Positions 7,057 through 63,926 of a stretch of 64,000 bases of DNA are shown in pieces; the first letter of the stretch is position 1; each line of letters opens with the position of its first letter. The stretch is from Tubiluchus corallicola. Its lineage: Eukaryota; Animalia; Priapulida. The notes under the pieces are model-generated. The model searched no databases, was not told the DNA's origin, and saw only the letters and a list, made by a program, of their open reading frames with translations. Location of the stretch: assembly GCA_030141605.1 (NCBI GenBank), contig JAQGDQ010000114.1, forward strand, positions 1-64,000, given 5' to 3'. The position numbers and the translations under genes were made by a program.

Positions 7057-8514
7057 TTGCTGATGGTGGTTCATGTGGATGGTAGTGCAGAATGTTTTTC
7101 AGTTTTTTGTCCAAGTCCGTATGCCTACGCACGACACGCGGATGTGAAGTCACAACTTAAATACGGAGTTCCAGCAGTGTATGGGCACGACGGCATGAAA
7201 GGCGATGGTAAACCCAAACCACCTGGTCCAAAAGGTCCAACAGGGTACATGACATACGATCCTGTTCCTGGTTATCCGACAAAGAAAAAAAAGACTATTG
7301 AATACGGTGAAAATCGACCTTTAACAGAGAAGCATAAAAGAGGTAAAAGTCGTGCTAACTATGGAAATAAAGGACACGAAGTGAAACAAACAAATTCTTA
7401 TAAGCCAGATTTTGGGAACAAAGAATATGGCGATAAGCGCGAAGAAGAACCTCGTTTCAAGGAAAGTTTGCACGTGGTTGAAAAAATGAATTATTATGAA
7501 AAAGAGCTTGGCAAATTCAGCAGCAATAAAAATAAGTACGACAAAGTGCGGAAAAGCTCTCAAAGTAGGAAACCATATGGAATTCCCTACCCTGTGACCG
7601 ATAAAAGGAAGTATAATGATGATCATGCTAATCCTCCACCCCTCCATACAGCAGATGATATTAGGAACTATGCTGCTGCTAAGGTCCAAGCGCATGCTGA
7701 ACCTCACACCTTTAATAAGCCAGACAAAATTGGTAAAGACATTTACGAGCTGACACATAGCGGTGTTAATAAAAATGCCGGATATGACATTGTGCAAAGG
7801 CACGAAACAAGCGGCATGTCTCCATTTGAATATGTAGAGAAAATGTCACTTAAGCCAGTAAAAGAAAATGTGCCGTACGTTCCACAGCCAAAACATCTGT
7901 CTCACGCATCATATTCAAATACTGAGCATCAAGTTAATGCACATATTTCTCCTCTGTTAAAATCTTCAAAAGTTCCTCACCCTGATATAAAAGATTTAGA
8001 AAAAGCAGCTTATGCCAACGTCCCACATGCAAAATCGCCTGATATTTCCCATTACAAGCCTCAGCATATTAAATATGCAAATCCCGAAGAATTGGAACGT
8101 GCCGCTTTTGCAAATATTCCACACATAAAAACGTCTGGTATTTCACATCCACAACATGCGCTCATTAAATACCCACATCCCAAAGAAGTGGAAGATACTG
8201 TTTATGCACATGCTGGTGTACCTCAAGAAAAAACGCAAGATGTTACGCATCCTAAACCGCCGCCTATTCATTACCCCGATCCCAAAGAACTTGAGCGTGT
8301 TGCGTATGCTAATATCCCGCACACGAAAGCAGAAATGCGATACCCAAATCCCCAGCATTTGGAAAAATCTATCAATGTGCACATTTCTTCGCAAAAAACT
8401 CCACACGTTTCATTCCCTACGGCAAAGCAGCTAGAACAAGCAGCTTATGCTCACGTGCCTAAAAAGGACATTTATGAGGAAGTGGTGAAATTTACCAAAA
8501 GGCAATTATCATAG
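7057..8514 (+). CDS. His/Pro/Tyr/Lys-rich protein, probably secreted, with ~30-aa C-terminal repeats (consensus YPxPKELERAAYANIPH)
   Basis: 485-codon ORF in AT-rich DNA. The N-terminus LLMVVHVDG-SAEC resembles the end of a signal peptide. There are six imperfect repeats in the C-terminal third and an AATAAA at ~8565. An in-frame ATG at 7024 is separated from the ORF by TAG at 7054-7056. Confidence 0.75.
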   Translation: MLMVVHVDGSAECFSVFCPSPYAYARHADVKSQLKYGVPAVYGHDGMKGDGKPKPPGPKGPTGYMTYDPVPGYPTKKKKTIEYGENRPLTEKHKRGKSRANYGNKGHEVKQTNSYKPDFGNKEYGDKREEEPRFKESLHVVEKMNYYEKELGKFSSNKNKYDKVRKSSQSRKPYGIPYPVTDKRKYNDDHANPPPLHTADDIRNYAAAKVQAHAEPHTFNKPDKIGKDIYELTHSGVNKNAGYDIVQRHETSGMSPFEYVEKMSLKPVKENVPYVPQPKHLSHASYSNTEHQVNAHISPLLKSSKVPHPDIKDLEKAAYANVPHAKSPDISHYKPQHIKYANPEELERAAFANIPHIKTSGISHPQHALIKYPHPKEVEDTVYAHAGVPQEKTQDVTHPKPPPIHYPDPKELERVAYANIPHTKAEMRYPNPQHLEKSINVHISSQKTPHVSFPTAKQLEQAAYAHVPKKDIYEEVVKFTKRQLS

Positions 8515-14512: not shown

Positions 14513-16978
14513 ATGGCCAGTCCTCGGTGGAAGAACGGACAACATCGTGGCAAACAGGAAAATACCAGAAACGTCTACGAAAGGTCACAAAGCTATGAAT
14601 ACGAAGGCACTACTCCGCAGTCACCAATTCATTTAAGTCAACCTGTCAGAGAAGTTGGTATTATAGAAAAGCTTCTGCATTCATACGGTTTTATTCAGTG
14701 CTGCCAAAGACAAGACAGGGTATTCTTTCATTATAGCCAATATCGAGGTGATATCAATCAAGTATGTATCGGCGATGCAGTAGAATTTATTATGGGAGCT
14801 GATAGAAAAACAAACAAGCCTATTGCCTGTGACGTAATCACTGTGCCGCCAGTAATAGCTTCACCACTTCCTATGTTGCATGCTGAAAGAGTTTTAGGGA
14901 CAGTAATTTCACAAGCAAGATTTGGTTGTGAAGGTTCTCAGTATGGTGATGCTGAAAGGTCCATGGATGGTGGCATACAGTATGAGCAAAGTGGAGAAAG
15001 TTTTTTCTTGCCATATAATACAGATGATTTAACAGATCCATCGCAAAACCTCCAAGTAGGAGATCAAGTAACTTTCTTGATTGCACCAAGTAATACTGAT
15101 GGAAGTTTGAGAGCGGTAGACGTCGAAGCTTTAAACCATGGTGGTGAAAAAATTCAAGGTGTTATTTGCACATTGAAAGACTCGTTTGGCTTTATTGAAA
15201 GAGCTGATGTTGTAAAGGAAGTCTTTTTTCATTTCACTGAATATCAAGGTGATCTTTCAGAAATGCATCTAGGTGAAGACGTTGAATTTTGCATTCAGGA
15301 TAGACATAACAAAGAAGTTGCTGTAAGCATTGTTCCTCTTCCAAGTGGAACTGTCATTTTTGAAGATGTTAGTGAAGAAAAGTTGAAAGGTTATGTTAAA
15401 AAAACAGTTATAAGAAATAGAAGACAACTTCAAAATAACGATACTGCTGCTGGCAGGATATCCTTCAAAGTAGAGAATGATGATTTAGAAATTCAGTTTA
15501 GTGAGAAAGATATAAGTAGAGATTATACCTTGTTAGAAGGCGATTTTGTTAGTTTTCATATAGCAACTGACAGGCGTGATGAGATGCAACATGCAACACT
15601 TATTGAATTACAAGAAGAAAGTTTCTTAAACTCAGATGAAACAAGAGAAACTGGAGTAATAGCTGTCGTTAAAGAAGGATTTGGATTTATTAAATGTGCA
15701 GAACGAGAAGCAAGAATGTTCTTCCACTTCAGTGAATTGCTAAATTTTAGCCGTGAACCAAAACCTCAAGATGAAGTTGAATTCACTGTAACAGAGGACT
15801 GCAATTCTAATAGACCTGTTGCCATTAGAATCAGGACCCTTCCAAAAGGAAGTGTAACATTTGAAAAATTGTTGGAACAAAAGTATGTGGGACATGTAGA
15901 AAAGGAAGCATTTTCTAAACGTAGTAGTAACAGAAGTCCTACTAAAAGTAAAGAAGGGACCAACAACACTGGAGAAATTGGTGCTATTGTCTGTAGTATA
16001 GACAACGAAACTCATACTGTACAATTTTTCATGAAAGATGTTGATGTACGAAATGTGCCAAAAATTGGTGATACTGTAGAGTTTCAGCTTTTAGAACAGA
16101 CAAGAAATGGTACAAAAACAGCTGTAAACATTCGTGTCCTAACACGAGCTAGTTCAGGACAACAACTTAGTGGATTTATTACTGGTCTGAAGGAGAATTT
16201 CGGCTTTATTGAGACTTTGGAACACGATCGGGAAATCTTTTTTCACTACAGTAATTTTGATGGTAATCCAAATGTGCTGCATTTAGGCGATGAAGTTAAA
16301 TATAACATGATGAAAAAGAATGGTAAACAGTGTGCTGAAAATGTGATAAAAATTCCCCTAGGAACTATACCTGTTGATGACTTAGAAGACAAAGTGTATG
16401 AAGGTACTGTTATAAGACAGCTTCGTGCAAACATTCCTGATGGAGAGTATGCTGGATTAGTGCAAGATAGTGAGCTGAGTGTATACCCGTATACTATTGT
16501 TAGTCTACTAAATAAGCAAGAATTACTTCAAAAAGGCGACTCGATAACATTTCAACTGACAAAAAGTAATGACCGCAAACAGCAATTTGCAGCAAACATT
16601 GTTGTCAAACGACAGTTGGTTCAGTCACGTGTAGAAGCCATTAAAGGACAGTTTGGTTTCATGTCATATGAAGCAGAAGAAGGGAAGAAGCTGTTTTTTC
16701 ACATGAGTGAAGTTATGGGTAGTGTTGAGCTGCAGGTTGGCGACGTCGTTCAGTTTTTTGTCATACATAACCAACAAACTGGAAAGAAATCTGCTTGTAA
16801 CGTCAACAAAATCAGTAGTCAAACTGATGTACCACGACCGGAGCGTCTACTGAGTCGGCTAAAAAGCATCTCGCTTGATGAAAGCCAGCCTAGAATTGTT
16901 GTTTTACGGCAGCCAAAGCCACCAGATGGCGCAAATGGATTTAAGTTTATTCGCTCAGTTAAAATACCTGTAAAATAA
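14513..16978 (+). CDS. CSDE1: Cold shock domain-containing protein E1 (UNR), intronless CDS of ~821 aa
   Basis: Five canonical cold-shock domains with RNP motifs (YGFIQC..VFFHYS, FGFIER..VFFHFT, FGFIKC..MFFHFS, FGFIET..IFFHYS, FGFMSY..LFFHMS) and a C-terminal SUZ-C-like RQPKPPDGANGF. The first ATG is at 14513; the ORF track start is a GTG. Confidence 0.96.
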   Translation: MASPRWKNGQHRGKQENTRNVYERSQSYEYEGTTPQSPIHLSQPVREVGIIEKLLHSYGFIQCCQRQDRVFFHYSQYRGDINQVCIGDAVEFIMGADRKTNKPIACDVITVPPVIASPLPMLHAERVLGTVISQARFGCEGSQYGDAERSMDGGIQYEQSGESFFLPYNTDDLTDPSQNLQVGDQVTFLIAPSNTDGSLRAVDVEALNHGGEKIQGVICTLKDSFGFIERADVVKEVFFHFTEYQGDLSEMHLGEDVEFCIQDRHNKEVAVSIVPLPSGTVIFEDVSEEKLKGYVKKTVIRNRRQLQNNDTAAGRISFKVENDDLEIQFSEKDISRDYTLLEGDFVSFHIATDRRDEMQHATLIELQEESFLNSDETRETGVIAVVKEGFGFIKCAEREARMFFHFSELLNFSREPKPQDEVEFTVTEDCNSNRPVAIRIRTLPKGSVTFEKLLEQKYVGHVEKEAFSKRSSNRSPTKSKEGTNNTGEIGAIVCSIDNETHTVQFFMKDVDVRNVPKIGDTVEFQLLEQTRNGTKTAVNIRVLTRASSGQQLSGFITGLKENFGFIETLEHDREIFFHYSNFDGNPNVLHLGDEVKYNMMKKNGKQCAENVIKIPLGTIPVDDLEDKVYEGTVIRQLRANIPDGEYAGLVQDSELSVYPYTIVSLLNKQELLQKGDSITFQLTKSNDRKQQFAANIVVKRQLVQSRVEAIKGQFGFMSYEAEEGKKLFFHMSEVMGSVELQVGDVVQFFVIHNQQTGKKSACNVNKISSQTDVPRPERLLSRLKSISLDESQPRIVVLRQPKPPDGANGFKFIRSVKIPVK

Positions 16979-17645
16979 AATTAATGTAAAGATAACAATA
17001 ATGATGAGTTGGATATTTAACTAATATCTTTGTGTTGGTTAAATGATTTTTGACCGATTTTAAGATTTAGGCCTTTTTTAGGGTGTGGTCAGGCATTAAT
17101 TATATTTGTGAAATGACCATTTACATCAGGCAAAAACATATAAAAAGTTCTGAATTGATACTAACTAATCACTGTATTTTTTCTAATTTAAATGGTTAGA
17201 TGTTGAATGACAGCAGATGTTGCACGACGGTAGCTTTAACATTTTATCGATGAGAGTTTTTGTATTCAATTAATATTAACTTGTTTACAGACTAAAATGT
17301 ATTAAATGAACCCGAACCTGTCTCCAGTTGTGCTTTATGTTTGTTTGCAGTAATTTTATAATTTCAAATATGTTGGCATTTGTGAAAAAAAGTGACCATC
17401 TGAGTTTGATTGTATATTTTATACTGCAAACTGAGAAAGTTGCAGGAAATGTTTACATTGCCGCTGCTTCATTAATACTAAAATCTAATTGTTAACATGA
17501 GCTCTTATCAGGCAAATGTAGGAAAATTTTTGTTATTCGTAGTTTTGTGTGATATACCTGCTATTTCGTATAAGATTGCACAAATAATTTGTCTTATTAC
17601 AGATAGCGTAACATTTTGAGACTGAAACTAGCCACCGCATTTGTT

Positions 17646-18410
17646 ATGTCTCGATTTGCGAAGAAATGGCATAAATATCGGTACCGATTTGTTCCTTGGA
17701 TTGTAATGAACATGAGAGGTGGGCATATACGCGTCATTCCACCGGGAAGTTCCGATAAATTAATCCCAGACAATGAAGTAAAAAAATTTCTTTTGAATCT
17801 ATTCGAGAAATACTTGTCAGACAATGCTCTTCATAAAACTGAGGTACTGTATAAATATTCGGGATTTGAAATTGGACGTGTTACTAGTAAAATACCTGGT
17901 GCTGGTCGTGGAGTTGCAGTGACACGTGGTACTATACCTGCCGGCGCTGTAGCTGCTCTCTATCCTGGAACAATTTATCTTCCTTACGAGCCAATTCTCA
18001 TTCAGAGCATTGGCAACAGCTTCATCTTCCGATGTGCTGACCACATACATGTGGATGGGAAGGACACTGGCTTGTCACGACTTCTGTACCGATCATGTTA
18101 TAATAGAGAACGGTTCGGCAAATATCAGATGTGTGATAATACTTGGTTAACTGAACGTCCGGTTAATCCATTGGTTATCGGACAGTATGTTAATAACCAC
18201 AATGAGTCATTTCTTGCAAATGTTGCATATCAAGAAGTTGACATAGAAGATGATATTCCAATAAGACTACGACAATATATACCGAACGTGTACTACAGCA
18301 GAAATGAAAGTGATAGTCCAAGACCATTGCGCATAATAGCTTTAATTGCTACTAGAACTATTCTTGAAGGAGAAGAGCTGTTCTCTAGCTACTTCACAGT
18401 TATACATTAA
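17646..18410 (+). CDS. SETD9: SET domain-containing protein 9, intronless CDS of 254 aa
   Basis: The N-terminus KWHKYRYRFVPWIVMN matches the SETD9 signature, with SET motifs GAGRGV, ALYPGTIY, GQYVNN and GEELFSSY. There is an in-frame stop at 17604 and a splice acceptor TCTTATTACAG ending at 17602 upstream. Confidence 0.92.
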   Translation: MSRFAKKWHKYRYRFVPWIVMNMRGGHIRVIPPGSSDKLIPDNEVKKFLLNLFEKYLSDNALHKTEVLYKYSGFEIGRVTSKIPGAGRGVAVTRGTIPAGAVAALYPGTIYLPYEPILIQSIGNSFIFRCADHIHVDGKDTGLSRLLYRSCYNRERFGKYQMCDNTWLTERPVNPLVIGQYVNNHNESFLANVAYQEVDIEDDIPIRLRQYIPNVYYSRNESDSPRPLRIIALIATRTILEGEELFSSYFTVIH

Positions 18411-20954: not shown

Positions 20955-37323
<16,369 letters not shown>

Positions 37324-39794
37324 CGTGCTTAATTTAATTTTGTTCCTTGATGTAGTACTGTTTAACGGCTGAAAATTGAAATACAGTTAATAACTAATTA
37401 TAATTTTAGATCTTGATGTCTTAATAAATAGATATTTTATTTGTGAGGCGGCTAACTGAAAATAAGTTGTAGTTAGACTTACTTTATCAGAGTTTAGTTC
37501 ATGGATAACTGAATCGTCTTTAAACAATCAGTTAACTATAGCAAGACGGTTTTGAGTTATTACTACACATTATTATTAGTGGCCTATCATACTGCACATT
37601 GAAACAATGATGTGTTTGAAGTTGACTATCAAGGGCTCTAGACTGTACAGCTGCTAAGCAACAGGAGTAGACATGTAGCACTAATAACTATTAACCTAAA
37701 TAGCTTGTGTAAAAATTAGCCAGGCATCCTTTTTAGGTTTACATGATACTTCTTTGGCAAACTCATTAATAACTTCAGCTATGCATGAATTCTGTTTCTA
37801 TGACATTGTAATTTCACTAAACAAATATTTTTTTACAACTGCAGCCACTAGTTCACAACAAGTTACTGCTTAACTGAATTGGTCTAATACTGTTATCAGA
37901 AATAGCAGGCTTCTCTGCCATTATTCAAGTTTAAATAGTAAATCATATAGAAGAATCTTAGGCATTATTAACATCAGCCAGTGACACAGCCAAGTGATTC
38001 AGATGCAGTTACTAAATTAGCAGTATGACAAGCAGCACAACATAATCCTTGTTTTTATTGTACATTCAAATTAATAAATGTAAATATGTACATTCTTGTA
38101 ATCCACTTAAAAAAGACCAGCAATGTAGTTGAAAGAAAGAAGGCATCTATAACAAGCCATTCCTATGTATGTACAATAGACATTGATCGGTTAGAGTTGT
38201 ACATATGCAATTAATTCGGTTAACAAACGTGTAGTGTACTTCGAATTACAAATTTTTGTAAGTGGTTGTAAAAACAAGTTATTACAGTTGACCTTATAAA
38301 GTAGGTACTATAAATGTAGTAATCAGTTTGGTCTGTGTGTCTGTCCACATGGTGTGCCTTTCTGTCTATATATTGCCACCTTTTCTTGGTTCTGGAATAA
38401 TCTGGAAAGTTGCATCTCGGTAGAGAAGTAGGAATCTCTCTCCAAACTCTGAGTCTATTGGTTTTTGGGTCAATCGGTGCAGATCTGAATTTTTCACAGT
38501 TTTTTAAAGATCTGCACATAACAGCTGTTGTGTTACTGAGGTGCAGGCGATTGATAGTCTGCTGCTTGGCCGTTATCAGACAACAACAATCAGTGACACA
38601 CATTTTAAGTTAATTCCAACTTGAAATAACCGTTGAATTCAGTCTATATCTAGACTGTTGCATTTTTTCATAGTATAATTTCCGTGATTAAGTATAATTT
38701 TAAGTGAAAATTACAAAACGTCAATATAGAAAATGCATCTTTTGCTGTAGTCTCCATGTATGTTGATCTCATCATAGTAACTGTATCCCTCTACTGGAGA
38801 CTCTGCAGTTTTATAAGCAAATAACATTATATTAACAGCTTTTTTAAGCAGCATGGCATGTTTGAAATTATCTTGACAAATTTGAAGTTAAAGTTCTTAC
38901 ATACACTTAAAAGTACACGAAGTAGCTGCAAAAAGTTTGTCCAAAAACAACAATTCATGAAATATAAAACTTTTAAAGAATCCAAATGATAGCATTAGTT
39001 TTATCATTTGCTTATAAATGACTGGAGTATCAATGTGCTTGACCAATTTTGCAATAATCAAAAGAAACTTTTGATGATTTTTTTCATATGAACATAATAG
39101 GAAATGACTAACGTTGACATGCTTTGTTCAGCTAATGAAATGCATTGTATAATCTACATTATTGTACTATACTCCAGCTAATTTTTGATGCTGAACCTAG
39201 GCAACTCAACTTGAAATCGGTTTGCTGCGAAATTCATGAAGGGTTGAAAGTGCCTAACACTATAATCATAGCTCTTTTTGTTATTCGTACTTTTTTCTCA
39301 GCTTGAATCAAAATATTGCATTATTTATATCTGTTAAATGATACTGTTTTTTCCTGTCTACAGGAAAAATCGCAAAAGTATGTTAAATATGTTTAGTACG
39401 CTTCGCATACTTTGATAAACTTTCTTGTGTTTTATGCTTAGGAAACTTCTCTTACAGAATAGAACTTAATATGGACTCTATTATTTACAAAAATTTCATG
39501 GTCAATAAACAATATATATAATTGGTTTCAGCATGATATCATATTACCATATAATTTACTTTATTTGCTTTTTGCGTACATCAAGCAAAATGTCATGCAA
39601 TGTCGGTTACTGAGTTTTCGTTAAAAACGGATTTATAAAAAACCTTGTAGGCAAATGGTAAGTAATAGTGGCCTATACAAAATTTATAACAAACTGGGAT
39701 AGTGGAGGATTGTGCAACTTTCATTTGATTTTCCTAGGATTTAGTTATACAAGAGTACAGATTTGTTCATACCTGTTTAACTCCAAAAAAATGT

Positions 39795-39971
39795 TCATAT
39801 AAGTCTGGTTTCTTCACTAATTTGATCTAAAGTCTTTTCCAGTTTTCGGTGGAGACGATCACGTTTATTCTTCAGATATCGTAATCTCCATGTTTTCAGC
39901 TGATATCCAAAAAGTACGCCAATGATAAAAGAAATACTAATAGTTGCTATTGTAGCATTCCTTGGTGTCAT
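39795..39971 (-). CDS. MTLN: Mitoregulin-like mitochondrial micropeptide, 58 aa
   Basis: MTPRNATIATISISFIIGVLFGYQLKTWRLRYLKNKRDRLHRKLEKTLDQISEETRLI has a single TM helix ending in GVLFGYQ, then a basic RYL..KR.RL..KL..T helix. This matches human MTLN as I recall it (FASGVLLGWQANRLRRRYLDWRKRRLQDKLAAT). The exon 39986-39773 is bounded by AG and GTATGA. Confidence 0.88.
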   Translation of the reverse strand: MTPRNATIATISISFIIGVLFGYQLKTWRLRYLKNKRDRLHRKLEKTLDQISEETRLI

Positions 39972-40599
39972 GTCAGTACAGATAGCCTATCAATAAAAAT
40001 ATAAATATCCAGTAATTTGTATCACGCTAACTTTGCAATAGGGTAGTTTTTGTTACTAGGGTTTAATTTTATTCCAACATTCCATTTTGTGAAGATTGCT
40101 ATTGATACCGAAATTAAAAAATCCTTAGTGCATTTAGGCAAGTTTATCTAACCTGCCACAGGGAGGTTAGATCAACAAGTTTTTGTTCCAACGTTTATCC
40201 ATAGCTCGTAACACAATAAGTGTCATAGGAACTATACTTTCTTCTGAAAAACTTGCAGTCGTGAATCTTTTTTCTTTTTTGGATGGCAGAAGTGCTTCCT
40301 CAATTTTATGGGTCAGTTAAAGAAATATGGATTTGTGGTGGAATGTACGTTGTTCTGATATCAACTGGTTAATAAGCAAAATACGTTTCGTGTATTATCT
40401 ATAATCTAGATTATAATATAATTAAGCTGTTACTACTACTAGTGTTAGGTAACTAATACAAGTTATCTTTGCTTGGTTGTTATATACTAGGATCTTTTAG
40501 AACATGGTAGTTTTTGTAGATAATTTCTTTTCAGTAACACCTGCACTTAGGAACGTGATAAATATGGTTGTAATCAAAAAACCCAGTTGCAGTATACAC

Positions 40600-40720
40600 T
40601 ATTCAGCATACCCGCAAACCACGCGTACAGTCAAAACACAGAAGTGTGCTGTGTGCACGTTAGGGTTATCCATGCGCAAAATACCCTAACTTTTGCTTGG
40701 CGCCTGCAAATAGAGTCATA
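40600..40720. promoter_or_regulatory. Candidate promoter and non-coding first exon for the MTLN-COQ8 unit
   Basis: Locally CpG-enriched, with a minus-strand donor GCGG|GTATGC at 40611. Inverted GTTAGGGT/ACCCTAAC boxes flank an NRF1-like CATGCGCA at 40659-40690. Confidence 0.35.
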
Positions 40721-43334
40721 GATACAGAAGTGTTAGTTCACTTGTGAATATGAGTAGCGTCAAACAGGGTATCACTGATCGACTGGTCGGTGCTCCGAAT
40801 TAAGTTTCTGGTAGCATTGCATTTACACGATGAAATTAAGTTATAATTTCGAATAATTTACATCAGAGTATCTTACAAACATCTAAAACAGATATCGTGT
40901 TACATTATATAAGCAAACAAAAAAAAAACAGATGAAAAATGTCCATAAAACTTTTTTCAGGTATTACAAGCAAAGGTCAAAGTCATAAGAAAACTGCAGA
41001 GTAGGAATAAACATCATGAAAAGCGGGAGCAGGCCAAGTTGCAGGGAGAATATACTTAAATATTATTGAAAGATGAATATCTAGCTCTGAATGTTCGTAG
41101 GGTATCTAATGTTTTCTGAAGCAGAACATTTCAGCACGGGGATAAGTAGAAATTAGATTAGTTGCATGGATCACTATCCATACATATACGCATTTGTAGT
41201 AGAATGGCAGGTATTTCGATTTTTCATTTGATGAAAGGCAATCATTTTTATGATCCAAGAACATCCATTAACACAAAACAAATTTTGGAGACATCAGTAA
41301 GATACACTGATGATTGTGAACTATACTCTAACCTCTTCTATTCCCTGATCCACTCAGTATTGCAAAGGCTGTACGTGTGAGACACAGTAGGCTTGCACAG
41401 TAAGTTTTTAGAGCAGAACAGACTCATTACTAATATTTCGATGTAGTAAGTTGTCACACTATAGGTTAATTTTTTGCACCTCTCTGATCAAAAAGTTATG
41501 CTACTTATTCATGGGTGGTATAAGTGCAGTTGGGCATTTTTATGCTCATTATTTTTCGAGGGATTATTTTTAAGTTGTGAATAAATTCAAATATGGTCAT
41601 AAAGCGAATTACAGTAGGAGATTTGTATTTTACTGGATTTTATAAATTTGTAAAAAAAGATCCCAGAAATACTAAAAGGTACAAATGGAAAATGTGGGTG
41701 AATGAATAGTTGTGGTATTAATGATGTAGTGGAAACTGCAGAAAAGTACAGCATAGATGTGGAAATGTGAACACTATAAAAAAACCATTGATACACTACC
41801 AGGAAAAGACAACAAAAGGAAAATTGGATGTTCAGTAAAAATGTGCAAGAAGCTGCAGGAATAGAACCAAATTATGATTGTTAAAATATACCTTTGGTGG
41901 AGATGGCAAAATTACACGGGCCATATCTTATAAGCTCTTGTTTTTAAACATGGTATACATGTTATTAGTTAAAGTGGGAAACGTTGATAAATCGAGATAA
42001 ATCGAGATTAACTTGGAAAAAGCGTTAACCCAGAAATATTGCACAGAATTTTAATTATTACTACAGAAAAAGGCATTTTCATTATCCAAGATAAAAAATT
42101 TACTATCTGTTTATTCATTAACAAGTTCTGGTAGTGAGTTCATATTATGTTTTACTATTTAAAGTTTATTTTTGTACATTTAAAAATATACAAAACTTAA
42201 CTTTATATCTACCTTAATTTTAAAGCAAGTAATTGAATTATTTTTGTTGTTATGGGAAAGAGGGGTTATTGACGCTATTAGTGGCTCTTGGTGCTGTAGA
42301 GAATGAAGGCAGTTGTGCTAATTACAGCAACGATGATTGGTGGCGATTATAATGGCAGTAGTAACTGCATCGTGTGGCATTGCTTCCTCCCGCCGATGCT
42401 GCTTGCTGCAGGCATAATTATTTTTGTGGTTTGTTGATTTGTGTTGTTAATATGATGCCAATGAAAATGTCACTGTGATGTTGTCATTGTTGTTGCTACT
42501 GCTGCATTCCTATAGCTGCTTCATTCTCTGACACCATGCAACTATGTTAGGACTCGTTTTCCTATACATACATTATATATACATGTATATATACAATTAA
42601 AAAGAATGACGTTAATGACGAGATAATTAAAATAACAACAGCAACCTTTAGGACTCCGTTAATTAAAATAAGAACATTATCAGGCACCTTTAAGACTCAT
42701 TATACATGCATACATATGAAAGAAATCTTTAAGAGTATATATTTGAATTATGAGTCGTAAATTTGTTGGTTAATGTTGTTATTTTTAATTATCATGTCGT
42801 TAAAATTGTCTTTTTAATTATATATTTTGTCTTTGAAACGTGGCGACCGGCAGAAAGCAAAACATATTCTTTTCCATTTGTGCTATTGTTCCTATACTTT
42901 TTAACCGTGCTATTCTTTCCTGCGCCATTCATACATATTTTTTATTTGTACCATTTTTTCCTGTGTCATTTTTTGTGTTGCAGATTTTAAATGCCGCACT
43001 GGCGTTTTATGTATAGCCATTAGCCACAAAACCCCAGCGAATCAGCCACACACATTAAAATCTATGGCTATAGCCAAGTTGCAGTTTTGCGCAAGCGGAC
43101 GCACCGGGGAGTATGGCATCAAATTATCACTGATGCTGTGTTGAATAACTGAAGCACCTAAGATGAATTAATCATGATTTACTTTTTTTCTGGATTAAGC
43201 GTTTTTAAGTTGAGTGTTGATACTGATATATAAGTGTTATATTTTTACGATTGCAACCGCGCAAACAAAGAATTTTCACGGAGTTATGCTCAGCTTCGTT
43301 CATTGACTCATCGCGAGAAGTGATCGGTAGCGGT

Positions 43335-46300
43335 ATGGGCATAAACGTCGTCACTCTTTTTGAAAGGCAAGATCTCATAAACCAGTTGGCAGATTTATTA
43401 AACAGTCAGTGGAGACGATCTAAGGCTGCCAGGTTTTTACATTTCACATGTTTATTTGTGTTTGCTTTACTGAGGGTACATTTAAAAATGATTAAATTTT
43501 AAGGTTACGCTTTGCTATTCTGTTGCCAACAAAATAGCATTTCCCCTAAGTGTTATTTAAAAGTATTTTGCTGTTAAACAACACTTGAATTATTTTGCTT
43601 CGAGTATGTTATTGTCTTTGTATTGTATCGTACTTCGAACAGAAGATACTTTGGCCATATAATTGACATAGCGTTCTTGTACACTATGGTTGATTGTCTT
43701 TTAAAGTATCACTGAAATAACTGTTGCATAAACTTGTGTGGGCAGCTTGCGCACAAAAAATTAAGCAAACTAATCTAAAGAGACTTTGGGTTGACCTAGA
43801 ATGACCGGAAAAGGTTGATAATATTAACATCCAATTGTAATAATTATATAAATTATGTATGTATAAAATCCAACAATGCAGTCTGATTAATATCGGCAAT
43901 TTGTTCCAAGTTGAACGTTTTATTACCTAACACATTACCTATTCTGGGGTCACAGGAAAGTACTATTGTATTATTATTATTAATAATTTCTACTACTACT
44001 ACTATTGCATTGCCTTCATTAGTACTGTACATGGAATCAACTTCTAAATATTTCATGTATAATCGCATAACTAAAAATCGTCATATTAATGGCAGCTCAA
44101 TACGAATGCCCAAGACTTGGCTCTTTGTCACAGTTAGTGTGAATTCTTCTGCTAATTATATTATCCAAGTAATGCATTATGAGTGTTCTTAGGGCAAAGT
44201 GCTTTCATGTAAGGGAAATATGGTGTTCACAGACATTATGCATACTTAAATGTTTAGTTCATAATTTCATTTTTTACAGAGTTAATAGCCTAGAGAAATC
44301 GTTGGGATCATTTCCTGTTTCACTGATTCTGCTTGATTGTGGATTGAATGGAAAAGAAGAAGTGATAGGACATAGTAGGATATGTATGGTTCTTGATAAG
44401 AATAATGCTTGTTGGGTAGAATCAGGTTAGTAATTTGTGTTTCTGCTAATTATTCAAAAACTTGTTCAGTGAACTACTAGTTTTACTTTGACTTTCTAAA
44501 AGACAAATGATGTTTTTTTTACAGTTTGGCAGTATTATATTGAATTTAGCACTCATCATCTGGACTTACTCATTATACGTGGGTGTTATAGGATTGAAAT
44601 CAATCTCATTATCTAGGATGCTTCTCTTAGGTGAGATGCTAAGTGGCATATGGTCTCGGCTCACATTCACATAGTGCATGCAATTCGCCTCCACACGGCA
44701 ATTATCCATGGACAGTATGGGCAGATGGCACTGTTCAAAATTGGTGGTTACCCATTCATTTATCCACATTGCTCGATGTTGCATATCATCAGGCACTAAC
44801 TTCCTCACCCCACTATGTAAACACAATAACTACTCAGTTATCAGCTTGCCTTCCTCATCATACGAAACTGCTTTTAAATGTACTTGGTTCACACTTTATA
44901 GCTATAATCAACTTGGTTGGTATGCTGTATGAGTGGTATCTTTTTTGCTTTTAGTTGTCGTGAAAAGAAGCTTAAGAGGAAAAGGCTTCGGAAGGTTAAT
45001 TATGAAACACACGGAAGAATATGCAAGAAGGTACTGTTTTAAACATGTAATTAGTGAACAACTTAATTAATTTCATTGTAATCTCCTGAAATTTTTGCAC
45101 ATTTTGGTAAAAACGGCAACGTCATATGATATGTGGTTTTGGAGTTAAGCACAGTTAAACGGCAACACTACACAGTGCACAAGCTGGTAGGAATACACCA
45201 TGCATTCATAGACACATCATTATGTGGCATTATTGAGTTGCTAGTCAATGAGTTGTAATCAAAGGGGTGATTTCTTCTTAAAATAGCAAAACTTGTATAA
45301 ATTATACTTTATAAATGCATTCTTAGACAGTTATCACTCTCAGTTTGTATCAACACTATGTATAAACAGTTGCTTTTGGGCGTCTAGTTTAACTAGAACA
45401 AATGAAAATGTGTTAAAGCAGCGATTTACCGATTTAACCATTAATTTATAATTTTATTGTAATGCACATGCTTACATTAAAATTCTAATTAAGTAGTAAC
45501 CTACAGAGCTGAAACTTGGTACCCTGACGGAGTTTTTAATATGATACAGTCAAGAATGTAGATAGCGCTGCTTCTCAAATATAACCAGAACCTGTCAGTG
45601 GATCCCTTTGATGGATTTCCTCTTTAAATGGGTCACGTGTGAAGCCAATTCTTCAAAATGAAAGCCTATGTAAGTTTACATTTCAATGAAGGAGTAAATT
45701 TATAATTAAATTGACATGTGGGTTTTGGTAAATGAGTTTTACTTGAAAAAAACAGCCTCATTTTAGGATTTTCTACAAGCAGCCTGCCACATCTCTAAAA
45801 TGAATGCTCACGTGGGTTTCAGTAAGTTGGTAGGTCTGCTCTTATGTATTATTCTCTCATCGAATATTTAGGCAGAAAATAGAAATAAAAGACCAATATC
45901 CTTTTCAGGTTGCCTTGGCATTGTATGAAGAGGCTCCTTCTATGGCAACCAAAATGCAACAAGTTTAAGCTTTAAAGCGATACTGAACTGTAAAACATCA
46001 TAAGTTCAGATCATGTGCTGTGTCTTATAAAGCGATTTCATAAAAAATTTTCGAACGATATATTTCACAAACTCCGAAAGGTTAATTTTTATATTAAAAA
46101 TTTCCACTCACCCTGTGATCAGCTGTCGCAAGTGCTATGTCGCACTGTGCGTAAGCTATGATGTCATTTCGTCCTCGCGCATTTGGCCTGCTCAATGCTA
46201 GTATACGCAGAGAACAGGGATAGTTTCTCACTGTTTATAGGAAACAATGTCTAAGCTGACTGCTAAAAATTGATACATACAGTAAATAGCAGGAGCACAG

Positions 46301-48425
46301 AAAGAAATAGAATAATTTTTACTAATTTTTAGACAGTGGAGCTGTAGAGCTTTGATTTTCTCTGCTGGGATTCCCATCTTAGCTGTTAACTTTTAGCCTC
46401 TAACAACATTTGTACAGATTTTTTGTAATGTAAAAATGTAAACAAATTGCTCCTTTCATGCAAATCTCTGTATTTAGCTGCATGTATTAGGTGAAATTCA
46501 TCAAGCCATTTATGCGAGAACTAGCTTGTAAGGACTGCACCAACCAATGTAGCACTGTTGTTCTTCTTTGAGATGATAGCATATAGGGAAGCTCTTTGCG
46601 TCCCTTCATGTAGCTACTTCTTGAAATGTACGAACCCGGCAAATTATTAGACTGACTATGGCGTTCATACTGTCGACACTATCATCAAACCAAGCGAGTA
46701 CAGAACGTGACGAGGCACTCGGTAATTGCAGAACTGGTCCTCATGCTACGTCTATACATTGGTGTATCTTTTCCCAAGATTCAATCGTTAATTTAAAAAC
46801 AACACTACTGCTGTTCCAGTGCTACAGCAAGTACAGACCACACTTTGTGCCATACACTTTTCAAAATTGACATCTATTCTCAGCATACAAGAACTGTAAT
46901 CCTAGCAAGTGCCACAGGCACGTATTAACTTTCAACGTACTTGCTAATGAGGACTTTGAGAACTGCGGTTTTTGAAGAACCAACTGAGACGTGTTGTAAA
47001 CAAGCTACAACTACCGGCGATGATGAAAGAAACCCCTCGTACTGCACAGTGGTTCAGTCGGTTCCATGCCATAGCAGGTTCCATTCTGTGTTGGTTCGGT
47101 GCTGTACTGCTGCCGATCTAAGATTGCAGGTTCAAATCCACTGGTGCAGCTTAGGACTACTGCCCCCCCCTCCCCAGTGTGACATTGAGCAGATGGTGCT
47201 TATACGCTTGACACGGCATACTTGTAAAGAAAACATAGACAAAGCAATAGTAAAAGTGAAATCATAGAATTGAGTAACTCGCCAGATATATAATCCGTTG
47301 TGTTCCATGCTGGCTGTCATTATGGAGTAGGTGCTGAGGTGGAAAATGCACCTGCCCGTCAGCCCACGAACCGACAAGGCCATTCCATTGCAACGGTTTT
47401 ATATCTGGTATTCAACACCACTATGCAATTGCTTAGTATGGAAGATTCCCTCACAATGTAGAGGGGTGGGTAGAAAATAAATGGCATAATGGAATTTTGC
47501 CTCCATAACAGTATTTTGGCATTGTAAATTATAAAACTGATAGTGACATTATCAAATTCGCTAAAGTCGGCTAAACTACTGAGTAAAACATTGAAAATAG
47601 ATTTTTGTTAAACTAAAACGCTGGTGAAGCTTATAAAGAAGTTTCTTATAGGAAATGATTTAACGAGATATGTTTATATATTTATCTACACATGCTGGTA
47701 AAGCTTACAAAGAAATTTTTTTTATAGGAAAGGATTTAATGAGATATATCTATCTACACATGATAAGCAGAAGTTCTATTCCCATCTTGGGTACAAATTT
47801 TGTGAACCTGTTGTAACTCTAGGAGGAGCCTCACATCTAATTAGTAGTGAAAAGGTAAAAATACTTTTAGATGATAAAACACATTTATATGATGACATTG
47901 TTGCGGCTGTATTCCGATGCTTTTCAAAAAAGTTAAATTTATTTAAGATTTTTTTTGTAGTTGCATGATTCAAGCTGTTAAATAGATTGTTTCCTTTAGT
48001 CCATTGTTAATGTTATTTATGCGAATGTGTGTTTCATTGTTTTTCTTCTTTCTATAAATTCATTCTTTCAGTTTCGACATCTACGGGCATCTCTTACTAA
48101 AAGTGTTAGGAACTCTGAAGAGCTAAATGATAATCGAGTATATGGCAGCAGGTATTTAGACTTGGAGAACACAGCTTCTGAGACTGATGCTTTGCAGCAA
48201 CTGAAAAGTACAGTTTCTCATACGTCAGGGAATTCATCTAGTCAATGTAATGCATACAGTACAAATATAAATTCTAGTCTGCCATCACATGTCATTCACG
48301 TGTCATCTAAGTCTGCTTCTACAGTTATTCCTCCTATACCTCCACCTCCTCCTATCCCGTTGCCCAAACCCAACAAACAGACTGCACAAGATGTGGTGTC
48401 TTTTATGATGAAGAGCTTGAGATAG
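43335..48425 (+). CDS. NAA80: Actin N-terminal acetyltransferase NAA80 (NAT6/NatH), 5 coding exons, ~266 aa
   Basis: Exons 43335-43432, 44280-44425, 44955-45030, 47728-47854 and 48072-48425 join in frame. Motifs are ADLLNSQWRRSKAAR, FPVSLIL, VIGHSR, the GNAT acetyl-CoA motif VVVKRSLRGKGFGR, YLSTHDKQKFYSHLGY, a poly-proline loop and a C-terminal FMMKSL. Confidence 0.93.
47620..47761 (+). repeat. ~75-bp tandem duplication spanning the NAA80 exon-4 splice acceptor
   Basis: GCTGGT.AAGCTTA.AAAGAA.TTT.TTATAGGAAA.GATTTAA.GAGATAT..TATCTACACAT occurs twice. Confidence 0.9.
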
Positions 48426-50517
48426 TGTTTCCAGAAAACTGCAGTTTGGTAAATTTGATGCCAATGGTGGTGCTTTAACTGCTTTTAGGATTTTTTGTTT
48501 TGTATTTTTAGATGTATTTTTTGAATCCTTCTTAATATTAAGCAAGGTACAAAATGATTTTTTTAAGATTATAATACCATAAATCCTCAAATGGCAAAGA
48601 CTACCAATTTCAGTTAAGGTCAGAGTGAAAATGATCCAATTGTTTAGGAATGGGCTACAGCAGCATACAACTGTAAATAATTACATAAATAAAATGTTTT
48701 GTGCATTTAAATTTTAATCCTTGTTTTTATACTAAATATAAAAGAGTTCACATTAAACCCGTTGACTCCCGTATACAATAGGGGAGCGAGTGCAATAAGT
48801 GATGAGATAACAGATTACGCATTTTTACATATAAAGTTCCTGATTTGATCACGCTTTGAATATGCAGTTTAGTCAGCCACCACATATCAGTAGCACTGGT
48901 CTGTTATTTTCACATTAAAATATTGAAGTTCTGTTCTTGAACCTGTGATTGACATAGATGGCTTCTGCTTTTAGGGCTTCATATATTACAAATAACATTA
49001 CTGTTCATTAGTATACAATAGGAATACACAGCAGTTTTCTTGTAAGTTAACATTAATTTTGAATAGAATTTGTGCTTTCGCAGCTTTTCCTGCTGCACAT
49101 TAAATTTGCTGGAAACTTCTTAAAAAAACAATTAGCATCTGCTCTTCTTTGTGGCGTATGGTATTACTTTAAATGCCAACAGTTGCTCGACCATTACACG
49201 ATCTCGCGTAACGTTACCTTGCAACTCTATGAAAAAGTGATTGTACTGGCAGTATAGCGATGACCACAATGTCTTGTTTGCTCAGGCGTGTAAATAGAAA
49301 CTTATGTAGCACATCAGTTCTACTCAGCTTTCAGCAGATGCGTGGTTAATTCTTTTCTGTTGTGCGTATAGGGCATCTTTTTTAGTTGAATGTTAAAAGA
49401 GGCCTGATTGCCCTGTTAATATTCATTTATCGGTATTCTAGAATTTACAATCTATTCTATACATGGTGTGTGTAATTTTATTCACAGTTTTACATTATAA
49501 GCAGAACTACAAAGACCCTTGCCACTTGTCATATATTGCACCATAATGTATTTTCACCAAAAAACATTCTCAAGTAAAGTGAACTGACAGTTGTGGGGAT
49601 AATAATGTGAATTGCTATAAATATGGAAGCATCAGCATGATGTACAATTTCAAACTTTCAATAAAGATATTGCTAACAAAGTAGCTGAAAAACTAAAAAT
49701 TCATGGAAATATATTACAATAGTCATAATAAGACATTTTCTTCAACCTTTTTTTGCTACTGGACAGTACAGCATAGATAATTGATAAAGGCTGTTTTGTG
49801 CAAAAACGTTTTATCAAAGACCCATAGCTTGAACATTTTAACATAGTAACAAGATAGTATATCTCACAAAAGAACAATTTTGAAAATATAATTCATATAA
49901 AATCGGGCTAGTAGATGTTTAATTTACACATGAATAAAAAAACATCACCGTACTATTACTTCATTAAATTATTTCTGATCCATAATGAAAGAAATGACAA
50001 AAACAAGTCATACAAACTGTATTGAAGTTAAATATTTCTATGGCTTTTCCTGTCAAATCTTCTGTAATAATAATTATTAAGTTCTGTCAGTTTCAATAGA
50101 CAATGTGCATACGTGAAACGGCAAAAGATATTTCCTATGCAATGCGTAGTAAGATTAATTTAAAATCAAAACAACAAATAACCACTAGTAGTCGAGCCAC
50201 ATACAACATATTATCCTCATTTTAAGGCACTTTAAACTCAGTTATTACAAATTTAATCACAATTATGATTACTAACTGGATGGTTGCACTAAAGTCAAAC
50301 AAATACAAATTTACAGAGAAGGTAACCACTTTCTTGTATGTGACTCTAATAAAACCTTAGTTTAATAAGCAATTGTATTCCACAGCTTCCATAATTTCAT
50401 GGTCTTTCATTGCCACAATACTTTGCAGTAACAGCTGCACAAACACAACGATCATATTTCCATATGGTTTTTATAACAAACCATGACGTGTTTAATCTAG
50501 ATCCATCAGTCTATTTT

Positions 50518-63926
<13,409 letters not shown>

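Follow-up and report, generated by a model that had tools for sequence, protein, structure and literature searches.

A mitoregulin reading frame in the predicted leader of a priapulid COQ8 gene: a candidate bicistronic mRNA

Introduction

Mitoregulin (MTLN/MOXI/LEMP, LINC00116) is treated in reviews as a vertebrate, stand-alone microprotein of 56-60 amino acids (aa), with an N-terminal hydrophobic helix and a basic tail. Here we describe an invertebrate MTLN open reading frame (ORF) that lies ahead of COQ8, the gene of a coenzyme Q (CoQ) biosynthesis ATPase, in 64,000 nucleotides (nt) of DNA from the priapulid Tubiluchus corallicola (GenBank assembly GCA_030141605.1, contig JAQGDQ010000114.1, positions 1 to 64,000; the window). 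It shares with the vertebrate protein the length, the helix, the tail and a PF22002 score above the family cut-off, and may be the first ORF of a bicistronic MTLN-COQ8 mRNA.

Small ORFs on shared transcripts have been described in several systems. In the human "gene symbiosis" cases MIURF-MIEF1, PYURF-PIGY and STREMI-SLC35A4, a conserved small ORF occupies the leader of an unrelated gene, and the genes predate the pairing, according to the available part of PMC13303939. The arrangement modelled here matches the pattern of "bipartite origin, bicistronic transcription" set out there, and likewise has a mitochondrial microprotein upstream; in contrast to the human cases, the upstream ORF is MTLN, its partner varies by lineage (COQ8, asparaginase, Makorin), and the window mRNA is modelled from DNA. 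Drosophila also has small mitochondrial ORFs on shared transcripts, such as sloth1/sloth2 and CG42497-Tim10, and the spacers of its exclusively polycistronic loci run from -34 to 319 nt, a range that includes the 67 nt modelled here (available parts of PMC4528330 and bioRxiv 10.1101/2022.04.24.489283). As far as the same portions go, the polycistronic arrangement of Drosophila small ORFs is seldom conserved across phyla; mitoregulin with COQ8 is unmentioned in them, and those of the small-ORF paper (bioRxiv 10.1101/2022.04.24.489283) contain neither "mitoregulin" nor "MTLN".

In the ESM Atlas, clusters with invertebrate proteins already bear a mitoregulin-family label. Our literature search, in which subscription coverage was limited and which leaves absence from print unproven, found, among the papers listed, no description of an invertebrate mitoregulin or of its pairing with COQ8, asparaginase or Makorin. 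The Drosophila Coq8 gene we take to be CG32649. Neither name occurs in the 12 supplementary files of PMC4528330 that were searched, file 1 being excluded.

Results

The MTLN ORF is located at 39971-39795 on the minus strand and encodes 58 aa followed by TGA. The peptide scored 44.9 bits (E 1.1e-11) against Pfam PF22002 (MTLN), whose gathering cut-off is 27 bits. An N-terminal hydrophobic helix (top 19-residue hydropathy 1.74, beginning at residue 7) is followed by a basic C-terminal tail, with 11 K/R against 5 D/E past residue 23. Two mitoregulin clusters of the ESM Atlas came nearest to the peptide, the nearest being labelled "Mitoregulin family protein" (0.92), in which Mollusca is the phylum most often recorded (2 members carry a record); the named cluster members are from an oyster and an isopod. 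Of the 25 proteins found by a HMMER search with the peptide, 24 were MTLN-like, while P0010 was a repetitive false match and was excluded from the MTLN alignment A1. No match came from a word-based protein search or from viral contigs (0 matches), and alignment A1 found no longer MTLN-fusion proteins in a weak search that covered only lengths of 273-2000 aa. The assignment of the ORF to the MTLN family, made in a preliminary description of this DNA, is thus borne out by PF22002, the ESM Atlas and the HMMER relatives. Purifying selection, which that description had posed as a check, was found as well: in a cluster of 14 related loci from other animals, the proportion of nonsynonymous differences (pN) was below that of synonymous ones (pS) in 91 of 91 pairs (means 0.082 and 0.55). 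Between the window MTLN and six other loci, pN was 0.35-0.48 and pS, here saturated, 0.78-0.89. By its sequence, the window ORF is a real invertebrate mitoregulin.

The whole ORF is enclosed in a predicted exon (39773..39986, -), with a 15-nt leader and 22 nt past the stop. All splice sites were scored with a matrix built from the window's own 11 COQ8 coding introns, and acceptors were ranked among 7,186 AG sites. The predicted acceptor AG of the MTLN exon (39987..39988, -) scored 6.6, in the top 3%, and implies a first exon further upstream, to which we assign no position. The predicted donor, CAG/GTATGA (39767..39775, -), scored 8.45, which places it in the top 0.8% of 7,369 GT sites and makes it the best donor from 41332 to COQ8 exon 1; the true COQ8 donors, scored leave-one-out, range from 2.8 to 11.0 with a median of 7.4, which the MTLN-exon donor exceeds. 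Such a site would fall no more than 30 nt from a given stop in about 1.4% of cases. At the other end, the TTTTCAG acceptor of COQ8 exon 1, ending at 37369, scored 5.7 (top 4.5%). Joining the two exons would leave 67 nt, with 0 ATG, between the MTLN stop and the COQ8 ATG at 37323. These splice signals and the spacer, as claimed in the preliminary description, are present at the positions that it gave. Its statement that no AATAAA occurs from stop to donor is true, but this interval measures 22 nt only, and the putative intron holds three (39565, 38059 and 37441). Likewise, the spacer lacks an ATG as claimed, but three out-of-frame ATGs separate the MTLN and COQ8 starts.

The putative intercistronic intron (37369..39772, -) is 2,404 nt long and has a CpG observed/expected ratio (o/e) of 0.43 overall. 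The COQ8 gene body is depleted of CpG (0.38 in the pooled coding introns), and the depletion is strongest just ahead of exon 1. In the final 800 nt of the putative intron, directly upstream of COQ8 exon 1, the ratio is 0.15, within the lowest 1% of 800-nt windows. CpG loss is a mark of methylated gene bodies in invertebrates, and a priapulid has a complete set of DNA methyltransferases, according to the available part of PMC8821070. Because of this low ratio and these enzymes, an own promoter close to COQ8 is unlikely, and we read the sequence ahead of COQ8 exon 1 as probable intron and place the likely promoter beyond MTLN, on its upstream side. A CpG-undepleted stretch at 40600..41000 (no strand assigned; o/e 0.97) may be the promoter of the unit or its first exon, and 42600-43600 is likewise undepleted (o/e 1.06). 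Inside the former, at 40654-40690, an inverted TTAGGGT/ACCCTAA pair flanks a GCGCATG-like core, which resembles an NRF1 site.

The two proposed splice sites are further marked by a paired 9-mer, GTTAAACAG. Its first copy ends at the MTLN-exon donor (39773..39781, -) and its second begins 2 nt into COQ8 exon 1 (37358..37366, -), making two copies in total on both strands of the window. This pair was spotted post hoc; 0.08% of random strong donor/acceptor pairs have 9 nt in common in this manner, and in the true COQ8 introns the shared length is 1-5 nt. The pair would fit the insertion of an intron, with target-site duplication, into a formerly contiguous MTLN-COQ8 leader; a search for a longer duplication around GTTAAACAG and for terminal inverted repeats of the putative intron found neither.

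We then arrive at the following model. Transcription would start from a shared upstream promoter near 40600-41000, the MTLN exon would be spliced to COQ8 exon 1, and the resulting mRNA would carry the MTLN and COQ8 ORFs 67 nt apart. Ribosomes would bypass the moderate MTLN start, be caught by short out-of-frame ORFs and reinitiate at COQ8. Shorter isoforms may coexist, namely MTLN-only by way of the AATAAA at 39565 and COQ8-only by exon skipping. The window itself shows the two ORFs, the families to which they belong and the sequences of the splice sites. The splice from the MTLN exon to COQ8 exon 1 is probable, in view of the DNA evidence given by the splice-site scores, the CpG pattern and the repeat. 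We also lean, with less assurance, towards the full model, in which a bicistronic mRNA is made from a shared promoter and both of its ORFs are translated. The preliminary description had proposed just such an exon in the COQ8 leader; this is still the best reading of the DNA and has precedent in other animals, but the junction itself is a predicted one. Of two sequencing runs compared with the window, X1 yielded genomic contigs that do not join across the putative intron, and X2 matched nothing but a repeat near 30400-30840, so that neither bears on expression.

In order to place the window among other animals, metagenome contigs were scanned with a degenerate DNA pattern of the conserved MTLN core, which recovers pattern-fitting homologues only. 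The scan yielded 27 other MTLN loci, all scoring 61-88 bits against the MTLN alignment, which collapse to 22 distinct loci in 6 clusters; the largest is the cluster of 14 loci described above. At three distinct loci another gene lies directly past the MTLN stop. In L027 (110-1259, -), a complete 319-aa Asparaginase_2 ORF begins 1 nt past it, and in L018 (8087-10089, -) a multi-exon asparaginase begins about 150 nt past it; the MTLN cores of the two are 39% identical. Members of the 90%-identity cluster of the L027 asparaginase lose their similarity at residues 95 and 169 and end in short tails of unrelated sequence, in the manner of intron read-through. Since they break off at apparent intron positions, L027 would be a spliced copy, and it is most likely a spliced mRNA contig carrying both ORFs. 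The 1-nt gap leaves scant room for two separate mRNAs, although a contig is not a single molecule. MTLN-asparaginase (isoaspartyl peptidase/L-asparaginase), found in two distant lineages, is a candidate for a conserved bicistron and has firmer support than the COQ8 pair.

The third arrangement (L006:6309-7874, -, and L023) has an intronless 453-aa ORF 27 nt past the MTLN stop. From its CCCH and RING domains we read it as Makorin-type, and it was not seen in the available flanks of 13 related loci. This fits a retrocopy inserted behind MTLN, with the MTLN start context weakened. The Makorin ORF is intronless as the retrocopy model predicts in the available part of PMC13303939; COQ8 of the window has introns and so is not a retrocopy. 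A strong MTLN start (A at -3, G at +4) was found in none of the 3 partner-bearing loci, compared with 15 of the 19 others, with a Fisher p of 0.023 that overstates the evidence because the loci are not independent (14 of 22 belong to one cluster). The window MTLN start is likewise without A at -3 and G at +4. In L025, 1,010 nt downstream of MTLN contain no long ORF, and stand-alone MTLN thus also seems to exist. Two further loci may be recorded here. In L004 (344-3623, +), MTLN follows a CTC1-like ORF of the same strand at a distance of about 340 nt, and an acceptor lies immediately at the MTLN ATG; in L010 (35-1119, -) a same-strand multi-exon gene begins about 460 nt past the MTLN stop.

Discussion

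Several observations weigh against a translated bicistronic MTLN-COQ8 message. COQ8 was present in the downstream flank of 0 of the 27 other MTLN loci, a set that includes no close relative of the window animal and has 2.7 kb of such flank in 8 of the 27 and at least 6 kb in 3; the set thus lends no support to conservation of the pair. Three out-of-frame AUGs, one of them in strong context, precede the COQ8 start, where other loci have 0-2. Two lie within the MTLN coding sequence (1.1 expected from synonymous resampling): one at 39956..39958 (-) opens a 3-codon ORF, and one at 39889..39891 (-), with A at -3 and G at +4, opens an 8-codon ORF. The last overlaps the MTLN stop as AUGA (39796..39798, -) and would open a 10-codon ORF in the modelled splice. 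The splice matrix derives from 11 introns only. Under free local alignment the 9-mer is ordinary, as 59% of random 211-nt pairs score equally high. An AATAAA (39560..39565, -), 229 nt past the MTLN stop, could serve as the poly(A) signal of a short mRNA with MTLN only, or it is there by chance, and the weaker donors at 39644 (7.3) and 39113 (6.7), where CpG is moderate, could feed a separate COQ8 first exon.

The intervening AUGs also bear on how COQ8 would be reached. The MTLN start is weak, with G at -3 and A at +4 where 15 of the 22 other loci have A/G, and the COQ8 start has A at -3. A weak start of ORF 1 is what a leaky-scanning bicistron of the green-algal type would call for. Green-algal bicistrons are depleted of AUGs, according to the available part of PMC11892635, and such depletion before ORF 2 is absent here. 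Because three AUGs intervene and the algal bicistrons are AUG-depleted, plain leaky scanning fits poorly, and the preliminary description, which had offered it as one of two routes, is weakened on this point. Reinitiation after short ORFs, for which there is viral precedent in the available part of PMC3561293, is the more likely way to COQ8 in our analysis.

Other explanations of the locus have to be considered beside the bicistronic message. In Drosophila, 114 of 159 dicistronic loci yield monocistronic forms too, and 130 genes have promoters and 5' exons in common (available part of PMC4528330). MTLN and COQ8 may share a promoter and be expressed from separate messages, the MTLN exon being a cassette or an alternative terminal exon: COQ8 would come from a first exon joined to 37368, and MTLN from the inclusion isoform or from an end at the AATAAA of 39565. 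The MTLN exon has the acceptor and the donor that a cassette requires, and the inclusion form places four AUGs (the MTLN start and the three others) ahead of COQ8. A terminal exon, however, has no use for a strong donor 22 nt past the stop, and an inclusion mRNA with untranslated COQ8 would keep 11 downstream junctions, which makes it a likely target of nonsense-mediated decay. We regard this arrangement as fairly unlikely. It is unlikely, too, that the two genes are independent neighbours, with MTLN ending near 39540 and COQ8 having its own promoter and a non-coding first exon in 39700-39100. The AATAAA at 39565 is followed by a U-rich stretch, CpG o/e is 0.6-0.8 across 39000-39800, donors are available at 39644, 39548 and 39113, and the L025 MTLN has no long ORF across its 1,010 nt downstream. 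On the other hand, AATAAA is common (25% of 250-nt windows; 16 in the 11 true COQ8 introns), and neither the best donor nor the paired GTTAAACAG would be explained.

Trans-splicing of a spliced leader onto an operon, giving one mRNA per gene, would make trans-splice acceptors of the AGs that precede MTLN (by 15 nt), COQ8 (by 45 nt) and the ATG of a SET-domain ORF of the window, which we take to be SETD9-like (by 43 nt). Several window genes do have an acceptor just ahead of the ATG, and nematodes, ecdysozoans too, process operons in this way (available part of PMC7986045). A gap of 2.4 kb and a strong donor in cis, however, agree poorly with it, no Rfam match was found within the window, and among the papers listed by our literature search there was no report of spliced leaders in priapulids or kinorhynchs, so that we give this explanation very little weight. 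Equally slight is the prospect of coupled translation by stop-start reinitiation, in which the AG of the second 9-mer (37357) is spliced and the stop-overlapping AUG comes into frame with COQ8, adding 20 residues to the targeting peptide. Through the 37357 acceptor, the AUGA start indeed reads into COQ8 without a stop, and the MTLN-partner junction of L027 is near stop-start; but this acceptor has a score of -8.2, a better AG stands 11 nt ahead of it, and in-frame read-through is estimated to arise by chance in about 1 of 6 cases.

Concerning the meaning of the bicistronic MTLN-COQ8 arrangement, the MTLN-first arrangements of other animals raise its prior and at the same time lower that of a special tie to CoQ. 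It looks as though mitoregulin is widespread among invertebrates and on several occasions came to stand first, ahead of an unrelated gene, with partners changing; this agrees with the human pattern and with the seldom conserved small-ORF arrangements of Drosophila cited above. The pairing of MTLN with COQ8 is probably peculiar to one lineage, an instance of mitoregulin serving a neighbouring housekeeping gene as its first cistron, and not a dedicated CoQ link. The functional link to CoQ synthesis that had been suggested for this DNA is unsupported, as COQ8 stands beside 0 of the 27 loci (3 of which have at least 6 kb of downstream flank) and the asparaginase and Makorin partners are unrelated to CoQ; a specific tie of this kind is improbable. 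More tentatively, and with doubt prevailing, one may picture mitoregulin as an old animal gene that outside vertebrates was repeatedly a first cistron with exchangeable partners (COQ8, isoaspartyl peptidase/asparaginase, Makorin), and whose translation is here tied obligatorily to that of COQ8, perhaps through stop-start coupling; a cardiolipin-linked microprotein and a CoQ ATPase would then be dosed together.

The range of mitoregulin extends across invertebrates, and the data suggest that the gene was overlooked earlier, concealed as it is within other genes' leaders. Simple invertebrate systems could thus serve for the study of mitoregulin, whose function is disputed. The COQ8, asparaginase and Makorin partners form a natural series for the origin of bicistronic mRNAs and for the question of whether partners are chosen by function or by chance. 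If translation of COQ8 depends on the upstream ORF, this would be a translational control point for CoQ synthesis.

COQ8 and other genes of the window

COQ8 consists of 12 exons on the minus strand (37368-20955) with GT-AG introns and a 627-aa frame without internal stop. Exon 1 (37162..37368) has a 45-nt leader before the ATG at 37323; it had no usable match in the ESM Atlas, and the exact N-terminus stays predicted. It is followed by exons 2 (36074..36439), 3 (34131..34197), 4 (27642..27710), 5 (26622..26747), 6 (25060..25145), 7 (23609..23749), 8 (23150..23325), 9 (22664..22805), 10 (21954..22061), 11 (21655..21807, with a weak Pfam ABC1 match) and 12 (20955..21242, through the stop). UbiB proteins are characterized by a KxGQ motif, an A-rich loop, a catalytic lysine and a DFG motif, and all of these occur in the intact model, the first in exon 5, the loop and the lysine in exon 7, and DFG in exon 11. 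Exon 12 matches human COQ8A structures (PDB) at E 9e-36, and solved COQ8A and COQ8B together at about E 1e-35. With these motifs and this match, the protein shares the features of COQ8A/COQ8B (ADCK3/4; UbiB/ABC1 atypical kinase family) and is not unusual; judged from its sequence, COQ8 of the window is an ordinary, intact gene. Its intron 3 contains, on the same strand, an intronless rhodopsin-family G-protein-coupled receptor gene (7tm_1, E 8e-23; 32154-33134, -).

The window CSDE1 has its top match in Priapulus caudatus (968 bits; next 806) and groups with Priapulus at a branch support (SH-aLRT) of 100 in a quick midpoint-rooted tree of 19 proteins, built with 18 of the 120 matches listed. 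As a single gene, it supports a priapulid or related scalidophoran, no finer. CSDE1 is intronless and is followed 667 nt later by the SET-domain ORF, also intronless (together 14513-18410, +). The acceptor 43 nt before the ATG of the latter makes this a second possible case of a shared transcript, or of a first exon shared with CSDE1. A repetitive 485-aa ORF at 7057-8511 (+) has no Pfam match. A gene at 43250-48430 (+) is divergent from MTLN/COQ8, and one of its exons weakly matches a mitochondrial fission regulator (E 0.02). Finally, exons of an EML-family beta-propeller are located at 53957-56225 (-).

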